From assembly GCA_016124195.1 (NCBI GenBank), contig WGOE01000008.1, positions 40,682 through 104,681 on the forward strand: DNA of 64,000 nt, written 5' to 3'. The notes below the pieces were generated by a model. That model saw only the letters and a list, made by a program, of their open reading frames with translations, searched no databases and was not told where the DNA came from. This document shows positions 57,836 through 64,000 of the stretch, piece by piece; position 1 is the first letter of the stretch; every line of letters begins with the position of its first letter. The DNA comes from a bacterium. GTDB taxonomy: Bacteria > Pseudomonadota > Alphaproteobacteria > Rhodobacterales > Rhodobacteraceae. Both the position numbers and the translations under genes were made by a program.

Positions 57836-57882
<47 letters not shown>

Positions 57883-58014
57883 TTTGCAGTGATTATTGTT
57901 TGAAGTGAAGTGGTTACGGGTTAGGAAGTTTTGCTGGGGGTGCGAGTGGGGGAGCGGTGCTTTCCGGCCCCTTGCAAGGAAAAAGCCGGGGCTGTAAACC
58001 CCGGCCAGTTGTAG

Positions 58015-58067
<53 letters not shown>

Positions 58068-58089
<22 letters not shown>

Positions 58090-58358
58090 TCACTCACATC
58101 ACGCAGTTTCCGCATATTGTTTCGATACGCTGTATCGTCGCGTCGCATGTGGTCGATCAGTGGCCACATTATATTTGAGATGAATCTGAGGTTTGCAGTC
58201 AGGTCCGGGTGCAAGTCCGCCAAATAGTCCTTACTTTTGGCCAGATTGACACCCTTCTGGACTTTGTGTTGAACCCCGTACATCGCCAGAGTAGCCTCCC
58301 AAACGAGGTCGAGAATTTTCTCAGATTTCGCAATTTGGCGTTTCGTTGGTTTCTTCAT
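58068..58358 (-). CDS. hypothetical protein (96 aa, Lys-rich)
   Basis: AT-richer ORF MKKPTKRQIAKSEKILDL.... Its last 7 codons and stop lie antisense inside the tRNA 3' end (58068-58089). Confidence 0.5.
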
Positions 58359-58476
58359 CGGTCTGGCCCTCCTTGGCCCAAGGGGTGCAGCGTGATTGCC
58401 GCGACCTCATGGGCCAGTGGTGCCATCGGATGCCCCATCATGATACGAGGGCTAGACCGCTAAAAAGCCAGCCCGA

Positions 58477-58842
58477 CTAAAGGAAAGCGTTCCTGTACCG
58501 CTTGCGGATCGCCTTAGCATCCTCCATCAACTGCAACCGATAGCGATCCTCGTCGGTCAGCTCACCGGCTGGCTGGGCAGGTTCATCGCCCAAATGGGGC
58601 GCGGTGGGCGCGGGTGAGCTGCCGCGATGCTGGTTCAGACGAATCAGCCCCGTGTTGCGGTCGAGGCGCAGGCGCTTGTCGCCCTTCTTGTGGCGGGCAT
58701 ACCAGATATTGGCGACCACCTTCTTGCGGTCGAGGCCAATCAGCTCTGCGACCTCTTGAGTGGTGCGTGGGCCGGTAGAGACAGCGGCGATGATCGCCGC
58801 TGTCTCTGTCGCGAATTGGTTTCGGTCAGTATAGCCGTTCAA
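58477..58842 (-). CDS. hypothetical protein with wHTH-like segment
   Basis: TTQEVAELIGLDRKKVVANIWYARHKK looks like a helix-turn-helix. A TTG start at 58842 overlaps the upstream stop (TTGA). The longest ORF would start at 58893. Confidence 0.45.
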   Translation of the reverse strand: MNGYTDRNQFATETAAIIAAVSTGPRTTQEVAELIGLDRKKVVANIWYARHKKGDKRLRLDRNTGLIRLNQHRGSSPAPTAPHLGDEPAQPAGELTDEDRYRLQLMEDAKAIRKRYRNAFL

Positions 58843-58985
58843 GGAAGAACCCCCAGGATCAGGATCAGCAGGGCCGGGGCGAGGTGAACCCACAGCAGAA
58901 CGCGCAGGACGCGGCGCAGTAGCCGCCTCTTTGGCTTGGGCGGGGTGTTAGCCTCCGGCAGGTGGATGACGTTGCTCTGGGTCAT
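58839..58985 (-). CDS. small membrane protein (48 aa)
   Basis: MTQSNVIHLPEANTPPKPKRRLLRRVLRVLLWVHLAPALLILILGVLP has a basic stretch followed by one TM helix. ATGA overlap with the upstream ORF. Confidence 0.4.
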   Translation of the reverse strand: MTQSNVIHLPEANTPPKPKRRLLRRVLRVLLWVHLAPALLILILGVLP

Positions 58986-59188
58986 TCGGCAGGCACCTTC
59001 TGGGCTTTGCGGGTCAACCGCTGCACCAGCGCCTCGAAGTCGGCAGAGGCGAAGTGGTAGCGGTGGACGCGCATGTCTGGGGTTAGGACGAGGACCGGCA
59101 GAGGCGGGGGCTTTGCTGCCCAAGGGGAGGCGGGGCGCGGGATGGTGGAGCGGTGGCTGTTGGTGACGCGGCGGGGGATGACCTTCAT
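58982..59188 (-). CDS. hypothetical protein (68 aa, Pro-rich)
   Basis: ATG 59188 with AGAGG 7 nt upstream. The longer 113-aa version in the track has no better support. Confidence 0.35.
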   Translation of the reverse strand: MKVIPRRVTNSHRSTIPRPASPWAAKPPPLPVLVLTPDMRVHRYHFASADFEALVQRLTRKAQKVPAE

Positions 59189-59269
59189 GGATGACCTCTG
59201 AGTTGTGTTCTGCATCTGTTCTGAGGTCTTCGGCAGGCTGGGGAGCAGGGCAACAAGAAATGGCAGGCC

Positions 59270-59291
59270 GGGGATGATGGAGAGCATCCCC
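59270..59291 (-). terminator. hairpin downstream of the 277-aa gene
   Basis: GGGGATG (59270-76) pairs with CATCCCC (59285-91) around an 8-nt loop. Only a weak T-rich tail on the minus strand. Confidence 0.3.
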
Positions 59292-59342
59292 GACCCTAAG
59301 ACGCGATGGTGGTCAGCCTCCACCCCGCACCTATTCTGTGCA

Positions 59343-60176
59343 TCAGGGCTTTTTCAGCTTCTGCAGATTGCTCAGCGTCTTTTTGGCCTGCGATTTGGCG
59401 TTCATGCGCATGCTGGCGGCGATCTCGTTGCGCTTGCCGATCTGGTGCTGCCAAGCGGCCAGAATGCCCTCAATCTCATTGACCATCACCGAATGCTGCG
59501 CATCAAAGCCAGCGGAGTAGCGCTTTGCGGCTTCACGACGCAGAAGATCGAAGGATGCAGCATCAAGGCCGGTCAGGTATGCCGGTTTCGACAACACCGC
59601 CTGCACAAGCTGCTGGTCGTTGCCGTCGTTCATCTGCTGCCGGATGAAGCCCAGCCGTTCCATGGGCTTTGAGAAGTTGCCCAAAAGGAAAGCGCGCAGC
59701 TCGGCCTGATCCGCATGGGGCTTGGCACCCCGGAACACATCGTCGGAAATCTTCTTGCACAGCAGCGACGTGGTGCCTTCAAAGTTCTTGCGGACATGGA
59801 CGAAACTCGACTGCACATCTTTGACAAGTTCATCGGATGTGTCGGCGTATTCGTCATAGATGGTGCTGTAGACTTTTAGCCGACCATTCAGCATCCGCAG
59901 GTCACCGAAAAACTCGTCGGGGCCGTTGGTGTTCTGGCGGCGGCGGGCTTGGTTGATGTTCTCTTTGTCAAACTCGCCCAAGTCGGTTAGCGCCGACCCC
60001 AGCGCGTGAAAAACCGTAGCGGTGTTGCTCAGCTCGCGCTGCAGCATCGCATAGAACGGCTGGCCGGGGGTATCCGGCACGTCAAGGTGATCTGCGAACC
60101 GGCCCAGCGCTTTGGGGTGCAGGGTCGGGCTGACGTGCTGGCTAACGTCGGTGTTCGGATCGAAGGGCATGGTCAA
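59343..60176 (-). CDS. hypothetical protein (277 aa), orphan
   Basis: Clean ORF with lower GC than the host genes and an ATGA overlap with the terL stop. No catalytic or structural motif recognised. Confidence 0.65.
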   Translation of the reverse strand: MTMPFDPNTDVSQHVSPTLHPKALGRFADHLDVPDTPGQPFYAMLQRELSNTATVFHALGSALTDLGEFDKENINQARRRQNTNGPDEFFGDLRMLNGRLKVYSTIYDEYADTSDELVKDVQSSFVHVRKNFEGTTSLLCKKISDDVFRGAKPHADQAELRAFLLGNFSKPMERLGFIRQQMNDGNDQQLVQAVLSKPAYLTGLDAASFDLLRREAAKRYSAGFDAQHSVMVNEIEGILAAWQHQIGKRNEIAASMRMNAKSQAKKTLSNLQKLKKP

Positions 60177-61573
60177 TAATCTCCTATGGTGCGGCCAGTT
60201 TTGCCGATTGCGGTTTTGAAGTGCCGGATGCCGTACCCGGCAGCGTCCAGCGCGTGGTCCTCAGACCAGCGGTGGTCGAGGTCTTCGGGGTTCAGCGGCC
60301 CGCGTGGGGCTTCGGGCAAGGTGGTGGCGAGGTAGCGACAGGCCGGGGTCAGGTAGAGGCCGGGGCCATCGCCGGTCACAGCGCAGGACAAGAGCTGGCG
60401 CATCAGTGCCCAAGTGCCGCGCCGGTCCTTGCGGAAAGGCTTGGTGGCTGGCACCCCTGCCTCGCGCAAAAGCTGGATCACGGTTTCGGATTGCAGCCCT
60501 TTGGCATCATCCTGGACCACTTGCGGGCAATTGCGCAGACCGTTGCGCTTGGCCATTTCCTTGATCATATCCGCCCAAGCGACAGGCGGCGCTCCGGTGC
60601 CGACCGACAGGTCGTCCCAGCTTGCCAGCGTCGAGGTTTCGTCAAGCGCGATGATGGTGCCCACCGGAAGGCGGAAGCCTTGCGGATGGGACGGGGTGAA
60701 ATAGCTGATCGGGTTGCGCAACTGCCCAAAGAGGATCGCCACCGATGGGCTTGCCGTTCCCCAGTCCGCGCCGATGACATAGCGGTAGTTCGCGCGCATC
60801 GCAGGCGGGGCCACGGGCAGCATGTGGGTGGCCGGGTCGTAGGCGTCGAACATGTTGCCGCCGAAGCTGGTCCACGTCCCGGCCAGCCATGCGTCCAGCA
60901 GCGCCGTGTTGCCATCGGTCGAGGCCCGAAGCTGGGCCGCGTATTGGTCGCGGTCGAGGTGTGGGTTCTGTTGCAGGTTAGAGCTGACCCAGACCCAGAG
61001 CTGGCCGTGTTCGTCGGTCCACGGCACCCACGGCGCGGATCGGTTCACGAAGGTCTTGAGAACCTTGCTGTGGCTTTTGCCACCGGGGTTTCCAGTGATA
61101 TGCACATGGGCGCGGCGACCGGGTGGCACCCGAAGGTTGGATCGAGACCGCATCATGAAAGCCCAAGCGGTCGGGCTGTAGTTGCCTGCCTCGTCGGCGT
61201 AGAGTGCGGTGAAAGTCCGCCCCTGCAGCTTGGCGTAGGACGCCTCATCCCCGATGTTGGTAAACTGGATCACCGCCCCGTTCGGGCAGGTCAGCGTCAT
61301 GTCCGATTTGTTGCGCTGCACCGAACCGAATGCGGCGATGCACAGCTCGTAGGCTTCGTTGAACAGCTCCAACAGGCCCGCGTGGCTTTCGCGCATGACG
61401 AGCGGGCGAGCGGTCGCGGCGAAGTCGGATGTGTGCGACAGCACGTCAAAGAGCAAGCTGACAGACTTGCCCGACCCGCGACCGCCAAGGTTGGCGATGT
61501 TGCACGTTCCCCGGAACGCCAGCACGGCTTTCTGGAAGTCGGTCGGTTCGATGGTGGTATCGGATACAAGCAT
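60173..61573 (-). CDS. phage terminase large subunit (PBSX/Terminase_3-6-like)
   Basis: 466 aa. Walker A GGRGSGKS, Walker B ALYADEAG, and a C-terminal nuclease-like half. Confidence 0.85.
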   Translation of the reverse strand: MLVSDTTIEPTDFQKAVLAFRGTCNIANLGGRGSGKSVSLLFDVLSHTSDFAATARPLVMRESHAGLLELFNEAYELCIAAFGSVQRNKSDMTLTCPNGAVIQFTNIGDEASYAKLQGRTFTALYADEAGNYSPTAWAFMMRSRSNLRVPPGRRAHVHITGNPGGKSHSKVLKTFVNRSAPWVPWTDEHGQLWVWVSSNLQQNPHLDRDQYAAQLRASTDGNTALLDAWLAGTWTSFGGNMFDAYDPATHMLPVAPPAMRANYRYVIGADWGTASPSVAILFGQLRNPISYFTPSHPQGFRLPVGTIIALDETSTLASWDDLSVGTGAPPVAWADMIKEMAKRNGLRNCPQVVQDDAKGLQSETVIQLLREAGVPATKPFRKDRRGTWALMRQLLSCAVTGDGPGLYLTPACRYLATTLPEAPRGPLNPEDLDHRWSEDHALDAAGYGIRHFKTAIGKTGRTIGDY

Positions 61574-61576
61574 TGG

Positions 61577-61852
61577 TCAGCCTCGCGGGTCCGGCCCAAG
61601 GTAGAGAGGCCAAGGGTAGTCGGCGGGGATATCCTCTGGCTCGATCAGCGGGTGGTTGTTGGCGAGGGTCGGGGAACCGTCTGCGTCGGTGCCACCGGTG
61701 AATTTCGCGGTGCCACGGATCAGGAACCGACCGGTCAGTTCTTCACCTGTGGCAGCGTTCCGCCCGATTGAGAGCAAGTGGAAGGTGCCCATGTCGCCGG
61801 GGGCGAACAGGTAGGGGTCGTCGTTCTCGTCAAGCTGGACTTGGAAGGTCAT
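61577..61852 (-). CDS. hypothetical protein (91 aa)
   Basis: Sits between the TerS-like and TerL genes. ATGA overlap with the upstream gene; ends 3 nt before terL. Confidence 0.5.
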   Translation of the reverse strand: MTFQVQLDENDDPYLFAPGDMGTFHLLSIGRNAATGEELTGRFLIRGTAKFTGGTDADGSPTLANNHPLIEPEDIPADYPWPLYLGPDPRG

Positions 61853-62346
61853 ACGAACAGAGCCTTTCGGTTGGCCGGTCGCCCAAAGGGTGCGGGTTCA
61901 GGCGTTGCTGGCTGGGGGGTGATGTCGCGCATCGCAGCGGTGAGCTTTGCCAGCTCGTCGGCGGTGGCAGCGGGCGGGATGAGGATGTTGACTGTTCGCT
62001 GGTCGGGCGCGGCGACAGGGGTGTTCTCGCGGTAGCCGTGGGCTGACTTCAGAAGGAACATGGCGGCGGGCGCGTAGCCGTCGCGGGCTTGCTGCATCAG
62101 CAGGCCGACCAACTCGTCGTGCATGGCGGCGTTGCCCTCACCATAGGCGTCAGCCAGTGCCTCGTCGCGCTCCAGCACATCCTTGAAGGTCGAAGCAGGC
62201 ATGCCGAGTGCGGCGGCGATGGACGCCTTGGCGCAGCCATTGGCCCGCATAGAGCGCACCATCGGATAGGCGTCGGCGTGTACGGTCCATGCCCCGCTCT
62301 TGCCACGGGCCTTGGTCGCGAAGGGGATGATGGTTTTCTTGCTCAT
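61849..62346 (-). CDS. terminase small subunit-like HTH protein
   Basis: Start ATG 62346 (MSKKTIIPF). HTH CAKASIAAALGMPASTFKDVLERDEAL, then AAMFLLKSAHGYRE, which resembles the conserved C-terminal motif of small terminases. Positioned directly upstream of terL. Confidence 0.55.
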   Translation of the reverse strand: MSKKTIIPFATKARGKSGAWTVHADAYPMVRSMRANGCAKASIAAALGMPASTFKDVLERDEALADAYGEGNAAMHDELVGLLMQQARDGYAPAAMFLLKSAHGYRENTPVAAPDQRTVNILIPPAATADELAKLTAAMRDITPQPATPEPAPFGRPANRKALFV

Positions 62347-62493
62347 GGGACTGTCATGTCCCGGTTCACCACAGCTGAAAACGAGGGCTAAACCGTCAGT
62401 TTCGGGCTTGGCGCACCCCAGTAGAATGCCCAGTGGTAGTGGTGCAGGGAATATGCCTGCAAACATGGGGCGAGTTGTGGTGGGGCTTACCCT

Positions 62494-62526
62494 TAGAAAG
62501 AAAAGGCCCCACCAAAGCGGGGCCTT
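62494..62526 (-). terminator. intrinsic terminator (minus strand) closing the noncoding block
   Basis: Minus strand reads AAGGCCCC-GCTTTGGT-GGGGCCTT followed by TTCTTTCT. Confidence 0.6.
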
Positions 62527-62535
62527 CTCAATGCG

Positions 62536-63022
62536 CGACTACGACTAGCAGAACCCCCGTCCTGCAGGTTGTAGGATAGGTGCCGGGGTGGTGGCGGACA
62601 ATCAACAACGCCTCAGAATAGGTCCGTTTCGGTCCTTTTTGAGAGGTCCGCCGGCTGGAGGACGTGAAAGTTTACTGTTTCACTTAGGAATACCCCGATT
62701 TGGCCCTACACTTCCCCCTCGCTGGTGGCACCCCCTCCCACAAGCCCAAGGGGGTTGCGGTTTCCGCGTGCATTTACAGGCGCTTACTCACCACACCTCC
62801 CTACACTCCCTTCTTTTAGTAACAGAGAAGAAGAGTAGAGGACCGACCCCTACCCCCTTGGGCCTACCTCTACTACCTCTATAGAGGAACCGCCCAGTGG
62901 CGGGGGGTTGGGGAGGTGCCGACCCGTAACCCGTTGTTCCCGCACACAAACGAGAGGCCCAAGGGGAGGTGTGCGGGGCGATGGGGTGGAAGTGGCAGGC
63001 AGGTGTTCCGCCCGAAACCGCC
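62536..63022 (-). other. repeat-rich noncoding block: candidate replication origin or structured RNA
   Basis: No ORF of 60 aa or more on the gene strand. Contains GGTCC x3, CCCTACACT x2, GCCCAAGGGG x3 (one inverted), the palindrome CCTCTATAGAGG, AT-richer patches, and two 10-11-nt long-range complementarities. Confidence 0.4.
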
Positions 63023-64000
63023 TTAAAACGGGATTTCCGCGTCCGGGATTTGTGGCTGCACGACGATCATGGTCCCGTCTTTGGTCCGCGCAATGTCAAG
63101 CTCGCACCCGCGCTGCACCTGATCGCCCCGCACATAGCACCATTGCTGCGACCCGTTGTGCCGGAGCTGTTTGCGCTCCCAGCCCAGCGCTTTCGCCGCT
63201 TGGCCGATCAGCGTCATGTGGTGCTGGGTCTTCGGCACCCCAAACAGGTCGTAGCACAGGCCGACTGGCAAGCGGCCATAGGCCGACCCCAGCTTCTGCG
63301 CAAACACCCCGTCTAGCGGGTTCTCCTCTTGGCGAGACGCCTGTTCGGTGGCTGCAGCGCCCCACAGGCTACGGTCCAGCCGGATAGCTTCCCCAGCGGC
63401 TTCTGCCACACACGCCTCGGCCCAAAACTGGTCCCGATGCTGGGCAATGCCATCAAGATTGATAACCCCGCACAGCACCGGCCAATAGCGGCGGTTGCCG
63501 GTTGGGTCTTTGAGATACTTGTCGCCATTGGTGGTTCCGACCACGACAAATTCTCGGTCTTTGTGCATTGTCATCCGGCCATATGCCATGCGGCCTTCGT
63601 CAAAGCAGCGCGACAGCATGGATTTAAGGTGCTCGGCATTCTTGTTGCTTTGGCCGACCATCTCGGCGGCTTCTACGATCCATTTGCCTGCGGTGGCCTC
63701 AATCACACGCTTGCCATCAGCGCCCAAAGGCAGGTCGTCGGAGAACCAATCGGGGTTGACCGCCAGCGTTCGCAGCAGTGTCGATTTACCCCCACCTTGC
63801 GCTCCTTCCAGCACCACCATTTCGTCAAACTTTGCGCCGGGGGTTCGGATGCGCCGAACAGCGGCGACCAACAGCAGGCGACCGACCGCGCGGGCATATG
63901 GGCTATCGGCCACCCCGCAAAAGTCGATCAGCCAGCGCCCAAGGCGAGGCACCCCGTCCCAGTGCAGGCTATCCAGATAATCAGCGACCGGGTGAAAACG
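63023..64000 (-). CDS. VapE/VirE-family primase-helicase-like protein (C-terminal part; ORF continues past the right edge)
   Basis: P-loop LEGAQGGGKST and Walker-B-like block FVVVGTTN. The frame stays open upstream of the track start (GTG 63952), reading FHPVADYLDSLHWDGVPRLGRWL up to position 64000. Confidence 0.85.
   Translation of the reverse strand, partial: RFHPVADYLDSLHWDGVPRLGRWLIDFCGVADSPYARAVGRLLLVAAVRRIRTPGAKFDEMVVLEGAQGGGKSTLLRTLAVNPDWFSDDLPLGADGKRVIEATAGKWIVEAAEMVGQSNKNAEHLKSMLSRCFDEGRMAYGRMTMHKDREFVVVGTTNGDKYLKDPTGNRRYWPVLCGVINLDGIAQHRDQFWAEACVAEAAGEAIRLDRSLWGAAATEQASRQEENPLDGVFAQKLGSAYGRLPVGLCYDLFGVPKTQHHMTLIGQAAKALGWERKQLRHNGSQQWCYVRGDQVQRGCELDIARTKDGTMIVVQPQIPDAEIPF

Follow-up and report, generated by a model that had tools for sequence, protein, structure and literature searches.

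The current study concerns a window of 64,000 nt, the whole stretch of DNA that was analyzed, in which a block at positions 58068-60176 of the minus strand, between the large terminase gene terL and a tRNA-Thr gene, had been flagged as a single low-GC cargo block of five coupled orphan genes. The block consists of two unrelated parts, namely c1, a conserved gene of a packaging module that follows terL, and a variable slot with four small genes, designated ORF2 to ORF5 (ORF, open reading frame). Both parts belong to an island with the appearance of a phage satellite, and an exact-sequence look-up of its terL led to a contig of 9,608 bp that carries the whole island (L001) and agrees with the island of the window in every gene compared. 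A sister island, L002, occupies the same chromosomal site as that of the window, with shared murA, DUF2948, and tRNA-Thr neighbors. The features of the block and its borders are as follows (att, attachment site; SD, Shine-Dalgarno sequence; GC1 to GC3, GC content at codon positions 1 to 3).

58015-58089, plus strand: tRNA-Thr(GGT), at which the island is integrated and which forms its left boundary (attL) (ARAGORN; Rfam tRNA, 72.7 bits)
58045-58074, no strand assigned: att core, made up of 30 nt from the 3' part of the tRNA, with an imperfect repeat (27/30) at the integrase end beyond the window (head of L001 versus the tRNA reverse complement)
58092-59349, no strand assigned: variable cargo cassette, 1,258 bp (blastn of the window versus L002)
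58068-58358, minus strand: ORF5, 96 aa, Lys-rich (GC 0.49; SD AAGGAGG 7 nt before the ATG)
58359-58476, minus strand: ORF4-ORF5 intergenic region, 118 nt (RNA fold of -56.5 kcal/mol, z = -2.98)
58477-58842, minus strand: ORF4, 121 aa, TTG start overlapping the ORF3 stop (TTGA; GC3 0.75)
58839-58985, minus strand: ORF3, 48 aa, ATG overlapping the ORF2 stop (ATGA; GC3 0.82)
58982-59188, minus strand: ORF2, 68 aa, Pro-rich; 101 aa from the ATG at 59287 or 113 aa from 59323 (GC3 0.84)
59265-59296, minus strand: 12-bp GC-rich hairpin just past the c1 stop, containing the ATG of the 101-aa ORF2 (terminator-like scan)
59343-60170, minus strand: c1, 275 aa (277 aa from 60176), conserved post-terL gene, helical (synteny, phmmer, AlphaFold2)
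60173-61573, minus strand: terL, large terminase subunit, 466 aa (Terminase_6N, E 8e-6; phrog_2 and phrog_979, ~1e-22)

All five same-strand ORFs of the original prediction are present (277/275, 68, 48, 121, and 96 aa), and its statement that the stretch has the lowest GC content holds: the block has a GC content of 0.593 compared to a window mean of 0.658, a lower value is found in just 0.6% of equal-sized windows, and the GC minimum of the window (57866-59974) almost coincides with the block. The low GC content is unevenly distributed, with overall values of 0.68 for the 68-aa gene and 0.65 for the 48-aa gene. In c1 it is confined to codon position 2 (GC2 0.38), while GC3 is 0.75 compared to 0.80 in terL and 0.81-0.85 in host genes; the low GC of this gene is therefore due to amino acid composition and not to foreign codon usage. 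Only the 96-aa gene is truly deviant, at all codon positions (GC3 0.56). Two of the three proposed stop/start overlaps were correct (ATGA at 58985-58982 and TTGA at 58842-58839), but the motif at 60176-60173 reads TTGA, not ATGA, on the coding strand, and the likelier start of c1 is the ATG at 60170, which lies 2 nt past the terL stop and has a GGAG 10 nt upstream. The absence of an assignable motif was borne out by searches of Pfam, PHROGs, PADLOC, and NCBIfam, none of which gave a significant match for any of the five ORFs.

The separation of c1 from its neighbors is based on synteny in related islands. Clustering by blastp of the genes downstream of terL placed the first gene in the same family as c1 in 24/28 loci; in three further loci the gene caller had taken an antisense ORF, which was frame-corrected before the final count, and a c1 homologue was then found directly after terL in 27/27 loci whose DNA reaches past terL. 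These homologues have 203-289 aa, lie on the same strand, and start 0-65 nt past terL (one at 218 nt), nearly always with a recognizable SD and in some cases with an overlap of the terL stop. Islands reached via other terL relatives also carry the gene, e.g., L045 (283 aa), L046 (280 aa), and L047 (268 aa). An exhaustive phmmer search of 1.84 billion representative proteins yielded 34 relatives at E <= 1e-3, of which 33 have 240-283 aa and align over most of their length, the remaining one being a 134-aa match to the C-terminal third. Two of them that had been recognized as homologues by sequence alone, P0121 and P0134, were examined in their contexts, and both are located directly after terL in int-alpA-primase-terS-terL islands. 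The closest homologue, and the only close one, is P0002 of L002 with 64% identity. The exhaustive search was needed, as a word-indexed one yielded no more than 2 clusters for c1 by itself and 4 for a 26-member profile; it performs poorly here because candidate preselection fails on this helical protein. By its synteny c1 is a conserved, island-specific core gene that is tied to the terminase genes and not cargo, because a homologue directly follows terL in every readable related island. The assignment of the 277-aa protein to a cargo or effector module thus fails against the 27/27 relatives and every other island examined, and conservation in all related elements, which the original prediction had named as the mark of a core gene, was found for this gene and not for the other four.

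The protein itself offers few clues. Conserved motifs of the family are E[VI]RAH, GDxxTVAAVLxAPxYLSGL, and LRxxAA. An AlphaFold2 model obtained with an alignment of 35 sequences reached a mean confidence (pLDDT) of 90.4 and a predicted template modeling score (pTM) of 0.82, while a run with 4 sequences was unusable (pLDDT 48). The model comprises long helices at 36-70, 104-145, and 220-255, a helical subdomain at 152-218 that contains the conserved motifs, and a beta-hairpin at 90-101 that is confined to a long-form subfamily. The Foldseek matches were not significant, the lowest E values being 0.13 in the PDB and 0.23 in BFVD, with TM-scores of <= 0.36; Pfam and PHROG searches with 26 and 35 family members and a PDB profile search returned coiled-coil noise only, and tblastn against all GenBank phages gave no match. 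The proposed check of the 277-aa protein for homology to scaffold, portal-accessory, or other morphogenesis proteins accordingly came out negative in Pfam, PHROGs, PDB, and BFVD. A resemblance to pore-forming toxins of the ClyA/AhlC type was also considered and rejected, since the respective PDB matches at the top of the Foldseek list are insignificant (E 0.1-1, TM-scores of 0.2-0.36) and the beta-hairpin of c1 is polar and missing in short-form members.

The second part of the block is delimited by the comparison with L002. Homology at the DNA level extends through terL and c1 to position 59350, 7 nt before the c1 stop, and resumes at 58091, 2 nt beyond the end of the tRNA; the interval 58092-59349 is the sole stretch from terL to the host flank without DNA homology to L002. 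At the same place the sister island harbors 2,284 unrelated bp with an oppositely oriented type VI retron (RT_VI, E 1e-71; HTH_VI, E 2e-32) and an unrelated 120-aa ORF. A second type VI retron is located in the slot of L004 (RT_VI, E 2e-73; HTH_VI, E 9e-34). Restriction-modification genes or methylases are found in further relatives, i.e., a C5 methylase with an ApaLI-like endonuclease (L025), an Eco57I-type methylase with a XamI endonuclease (L019), a C5 methylase with NOV_C (L020), an N6/N4 methylase (L011), and an Eco57I-type methylase (L098). Other slots contain a CAP12/Pycsar-type TIR (L013), a ThsB-like TIR (L005), AbiJ (L021), PDC-M36A (L018), GIY-YIG (L023), or a trypsin-like protease (L007). 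The raw tally of defense genes in about 20 cassettes is 2 type VI retrons, 5 restriction-modification systems or methylases, 2 TIR proteins, 1 AbiJ, and 1 PDC-M36A, and in a comparison of 28 loci almost every gene cluster of the slot is a singleton, with the exception of c2-type genes. The proposed survey of homologous elements thus revealed exchanged contents between conserved flanks, and the interval from the c1 stop to the tRNA end is a genuine hot spot, a variable cargo slot. The suggestion of an att-proximal hot spot is thereby confirmed for the four small genes by the sharp breakpoints and the swapped contents, but it does not extend to the 277-aa gene, through which the homology with L002 continues.

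The c2 genes are small genes right after c1 in about 10 islands (among L004-L033; e.g., L008, 11966-12301) and are missing from the island of the window. They have a variable body, often with GWPDGVDP, and a conserved C-terminal peptide, [VA][KRE][KR]FR[ERQ][LM]L.

The island is integrated at the 3' end of the tRNA-Thr gene. At one end L001 stops within the tRNA, at window position 58032, and its other end carries an imperfect copy (27/30) of the tRNA 3' part (attR); the repeat was recognized by comparing the head of L001 GGATTGAACTCTCGACCTCTCCCTTACCAA with the reverse complement of the tRNA. Of the island of ~9.6 kb, the window includes only the terL-side half, the integrase end being expected at ~67.6 kb. 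The gene order on L001 is a tyrosine-type integrase (399 aa, located outside the window), a 201-aa gene, AlpA (AlpA/HTH_17), a primase (RepB_primase and VapE, 745 aa), ~0.68 kb of non-coding DNA, and then a terS-like gene for a small terminase subunit (165 aa), a 91-aa gene, terL (466 aa), c1 (275 aa), and genes for 101, 48, 121, and 96 aa. Neither the 12 genes of L001 nor those of its relatives include a capsid, portal, or tail gene. The remaining genes of the island in the window are the following.

61577-61852, minus strand: 91-aa gene located after terS and before terL and shared with the closest relatives (L003, L018, and L007 have homologues)
61849-62346, minus strand: terS-like gene, with 165 aa in the gene call of L001 (match to phrog_309, small terminase subunit, at E 2e-5)
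63023-64000, minus strand: C-terminal part of the RepB-primase/VapE gene, cut by the window end (full length of 745 aa; VapE-like_dom, E 3e-63)

The primase/VapE gene is visible in its complete form on L001, and a terS-like gene precedes terL in nearly all relatives. By its content, the gene set is that of a phage satellite that brings a complete terminase of its own.

This island is a member of a coherent family. A large protein database contained 116 relatives of its terL, many of them on contigs of 9-12 kb; a scan with a terL profile of one genome per species identified 42 loci, and a metagenome scan identified 47 more. The closer relatives, with 40-71% terL identity, belong to Rhodobacterales, Sphingomonadales, Hyphomicrobiales, Hyphomonadaceae, and some Planctomycetota. 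The order int-alpA-primase-terS-terL-c1 was found in about 30 loci of Alphaproteobacteria and Planctomycetota at many different tRNAs, and about half of the islands with a readable downstream flank terminate, 2-5.6 kb past terL, where a tRNA gene on the opposite strand has its 3' end (Thr, Arg, Ser, Lys, Pro, Gly, or Met). Compared to the terL genes of 50,697 GenBank phage genomes, that of the island reaches no more than 27% identity, and a terL pattern scan of IMG/VR revealed no close relative.

Many terL relatives are located on contigs of 9.4-11.7 kb that essentially represent one island from att to att, e.g., L001, L045, and L046. This suggests that the islands are frequently assembled separately from the chromosome, as population-variable, excised, or amplified elements; L001 has no terminal overlap and therefore gives no evidence of a circular form. 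One member of the family, L099, is located in a complete 9.1-Mb genome (CP121646.1), at about 1.018-1.028 Mb. Distant terL relatives (~25% identity) occur in marine picocyanobacteria, i.e., Synechococcus (L031 and L040) and Cyanobium (L034); Synechococcus sp. MIT S9503, whose genome is complete, is among them.

Hot spots for defense genes in P4-like satellites and P2 prophages, and the immune cargo that PICIs (phage-inducible chromosomal islands) carry, are established according to their citation in PMC10085698 (Rousset et al. 2022, ref. 9 therein, and Fillol-Salom et al. 2022, ref. 10 therein). The slot described here shares with them a fixed position between late genes and the att end and the swapped content of retron, restriction-modification, Abi (abortive infection), and TIR genes, but differs in the element family, the flanks (c1 and the tRNA end), and the hosts (Alphaproteobacteria and Planctomycetota); moreover, the cassette of the window matches no system catalogued in PADLOC. 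The type VI retrons (RT_VI plus HTH_VI) that occupy the slots of L002 and L004 have a small helix-turn-helix (HTH) protein as the sole feature in common with this cassette; the window contains no reverse transcriptase. Gram-negative PICIs (int, alpA, pri-rep, terS/rpp) resemble the island in their size of ~10 kb, the succession of int-alpA-primase and packaging module, and the lack of structural genes, whereas the family of the window adds a full-length terL and c1; Pfam and PHROG scans of the window genes detected no homologue of PICI capsid-morphogenesis proteins or Rpp. Capsid-forming PICIs (cfPICIs) likewise encode their own terL and terS but have as their defining feature capsid, portal, protease, and head-tail adaptor genes (PMC10085698), which are absent from L001 and its relatives. 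With respect to P4-like satellites, the window genes have no match to Psu, Sid, Delta, Epsilon, or the alpha-primase in the PHROG and Pfam scans, and the fold search with c1 gave no Sid- or Psu-like match. The marine virion-encapsidated integrative mobile elements (VEIMEs; PMC9618062) and PICI-like tycheposons (bioRxiv 10.1101/2020.12.28.424599) are also small integrative elements, often at tRNAs, with integrase, AlpA, primase, terS, no capsid genes, and some defense cargo. They are reported with terS or a capsid gene and not with terL, these papers mention no c1-like core gene, and it is by these published descriptions that they are set apart.

The island, which is known here from its genes, thus displays every computational feature of a PICI-like satellite that was examined. 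Satellites with a defense hot spot are an element type already known; new are the capsid-less family with terS, terL, and c1, the gene c1 itself, and the content of this cassette.

The four small genes are without relatives in anything that was searched. When ~15 billion proteins are clustered at 90%, each of them stays a singleton; in the 97 related loci, homologues of the four were found neither by tblastn nor by phmmer --max, neither ORF4 nor ORF5 has a match in 72,556 plasmids, and ORF4 has none in 50,697 phages. The proposed check for defense systems, which was carried out with PADLOC-DB v2, gave no match at E <= 1 for any of the five ORFs of the block. ORFs 2 to 4 show the codon position pattern GC3 > GC1 > GC2, and overlapping ORFs on the opposite strand do not have such a coding pattern, e.g., 58936-59166(+) with a GC2 of 0.78. 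The start of ORF2 that was chosen by public gene callers results in the 101-aa form (GC209_13930). The 48-aa product of ORF3 has a basic N terminus and, as originally stated, a single transmembrane segment, which is a strongly hydrophobic C-terminal helix (Kyte-Doolittle maximum of 2.61 over 19 residues, residues 29-47). For ORF4, inspection by eye revealed a helix-helix-helix-wing pattern followed by a Pro-rich linker and a basic C-terminal helix; the earlier description as winged-HTH-like is in agreement with this N-terminal pattern and with weak matches to HTH_20 (E 0.04) and a PHROG repressor (E 0.03), but none of them is significant, and an N-terminal winged HTH is probable. The ATGA and TTGA overlaps indicate that ORFs 2 to 4 are probably coupled in translation. 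The resulting arrangement of a membrane peptide coupled to a putative winged-HTH protein would be compatible with a type II toxin-antitoxin pair, in which a small toxin adjoins a DNA-binding antitoxin; no toxin-antitoxin family in Pfam or NCBIfam was matched.

ORF5 differs from the other three in composition and has a strong SD of its own, and its last 22 nt (7 codons plus stop) are located inside the tRNA 3' end and att core. The spacer between ORF4 and ORF5 has a predicted fold that was equaled by 2/200 shuffles and pairs the SD of ORF5 with sequence just past the ORF4 stop, which could provide translational control of ORF5; the prediction is based on a single sequence. No stem other than the hairpin at 59265-59296 is retained in the centroid fold; this hairpin may terminate the packaging operon, but the count of the terminator-like scan was not above chance.

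ORF5 ends in GAAGED before its stop codon, and the unrelated 120-aa last ORF of L002 (L002, 4865-4886) ends in the identical six residues. In both cases the att core, read in the same frame (window 58068-58089), supplies the C terminus and the stop. The shared ending may have arisen by chance, with one frame in three.

Taken together, we favor with moderate confidence a satellite-like island with its own terminase, in which c1 is a core gene and the four small genes occupy the variable slot, along with the following mechanism. The c1 protein would act together with TerS and TerL when the island hijacks the procapsids of a helper phage, either by docking the foreign terminase on the helper portal or by blocking the helper's own terminase. 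ORF2, ORF3, and ORF4 would constitute one translationally coupled accessory operon, with the 48-aa tail-anchored membrane peptide as effector and the 121-aa winged-HTH protein as its regulator, and ORF5 would be a separately translated gene that was acquired more recently. The operon would most likely serve phage defense, helper interference, or island maintenance. From position and architecture we infer a role in defense or interference, and we think that the four genes are most likely an accessory defense, interference, or addiction module. The more ambitious version, i.e., an undescribed capsid-less satellite family with TerS, TerL, and c1 as a new packaging-hijack factor and, at the same time, four orphans that form a new minimal anti-phage or helper-interference system centered on the 48-aa membrane peptide and the winged-HTH protein, is rather doubtful.

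Several observations weigh against the favored explanation. The satellite status of the island is deduced from gene content, and the packaging role of c1 is guilt by association, because c1 has no detectable relative of characterized function. Non-defense cargo exists in the slot; several cassettes of relatives are unannotated, and those of L045 and L046 are nearly empty. Finally, the four small genes have no match in PADLOC, Pfam, PHROGs, or NCBIfam, and conservation cannot vouch for them since they lack any homologue in what was searched; the term "orphan" denotes a singleton at 90% identity without a match in the 97 loci, in the plasmids (ORF4 and ORF5), and in the phages (ORF4).

Among the alternatives, it is possible, if unlikely, that the four small genes are lineage-specific genes of the island life cycle, analogous to delta and epsilon of P4 or pti and ppi of Staphylococcus aureus pathogenicity islands (SaPIs), with functions such as the sensing of a helper, control of late genes, interference with the packaging of the helper, or superinfection exclusion. 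Small same-strand genes are located right after c1 in many relatives (clusters c2, c7, and c12), and the GC3 values of ORFs 2 to 4 are host- and island-like. The C terminus of ORF4 (AIRKRYRNAFL) is loosely similar to the c2 motif (AVKRFRELL), and its architecture is shared with the 146-aa post-c1 gene of L022 (pairwise E 0.014). However, phmmer --max found no link of ORF4 to the L022 protein or to c2 proteins, and this relationship is retained as a weak lead only. Moreover, L002 has a retron in the respective interval and lacks all four genes, which are therefore dispensable for this type of island.

A different role has to be weighed for c1, which might be a redirector or scaffold of capsid assembly like Sid of P4, CpmB of SaPIs, or TcaP of the phage-inducible chromosomal island-like element PLE, making small capsids for a genome of ~10 kb. 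A mostly helical protein of ~210-290 aa with a basic C-terminal helix, encoded in a late/packaging operon of an island of this size, would fit such a function. Yet no likeness to scaffold or size determination proteins was found in PHROGs, PDB, or BFVD by sequence or fold, the model of c1 is a compact bundle (pTM 0.82) and not an extended strut, and for marine satellites of similar size, packaging as concatemers is possible with no remodeling of the capsid (PMC9618062). We therefore consider it improbable.

Even less credit is given to the assumption that the four small ORFs, in part or in their entirety, are spurious or decayed remnants of an earlier cassette. It could explain the failure of every homology search, and long chance ORFs are common in a window of 66% GC; in addition, the start of ORF2 is ambiguous, and the atypical ORF5 ends only by running into the tRNA. 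On the other hand, ORFs 2 to 4 have the GC pattern of real genes, which is missing in the opposite-strand ORFs, two stop/start overlaps of 4 nt are present, ORF5 is preceded by the SD AAGGAGG, and independent gene callers annotated all four. Parasitism of gene transfer agents (GTAs) was set aside, as the islands exceed the capacity of the Rhodobacter capsulatus agent RcGTA (~4 kb) and also occur in Planctomycetota. The initial proposal of one horizontally acquired cargo block with all five genes as a regulated effector module, which was founded on their common strand, close spacing, low GC content, and lack of recognized domains, is hardly tenable, since the 275-aa gene follows terL in every related island and the other four are found in none, homology with the sister island spans c1 and ends at its stop codon, the low GC of c1 stems from GC2 and not GC3, and between c1 and ORF2 there are a hairpin and 55-154 nt of spacing, according to the ORF2 start that is taken.

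Cargo slots of satellites and prophages are a productive source of new anti-phage systems. The slot described here is sharply delimited and filled by known systems in relatives, and the four orphans are therefore concrete and cheap candidates for a small and new defense system. The analysis furthermore exposes a coherent family of ~10-kb islands in Alphaproteobacteria and Planctomycetota that have terS and terL, always carry c1, and lack a capsid gene. If they are true satellites, they would combine a complete terminase of their own with a borrowed capsid, a combination that is absent from the four SatelliteFinder families and the two marine element sets compared, and c1 would be the obvious handle on this own-terminase hijacking strategy.

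Some minor observations concern the remainder of the island and its surroundings. An Rfam scan of the island detected nothing besides the tRNA, and a promoter scan found no promoter. The ~0.68 kb of non-coding DNA between the primase/VapE and terS-like genes (62347-63022) contains several copies of GCCCAAGGGG / CCCCTTGGGC in both orientations and further short G/C-rich repeats, and a gap of comparable size is present in relatives with listed gene calls; this stretch could be the origin, iterons, or a pac/TerS-binding region of the island. In L002, low-complexity sequence at the contig end (1-700) interrupts the 5' part of terL and looks like an assembly artifact. A degenerate tRNA-like fragment (57836-57891; Rfam tRNA, 23 bits) is located ~120 nt upstream of the tRNA-Thr gene; it matches a part of the L002 tRNA-Thr with 92% identity over 38 nt and could have been left behind by an earlier integration or duplication at the site.

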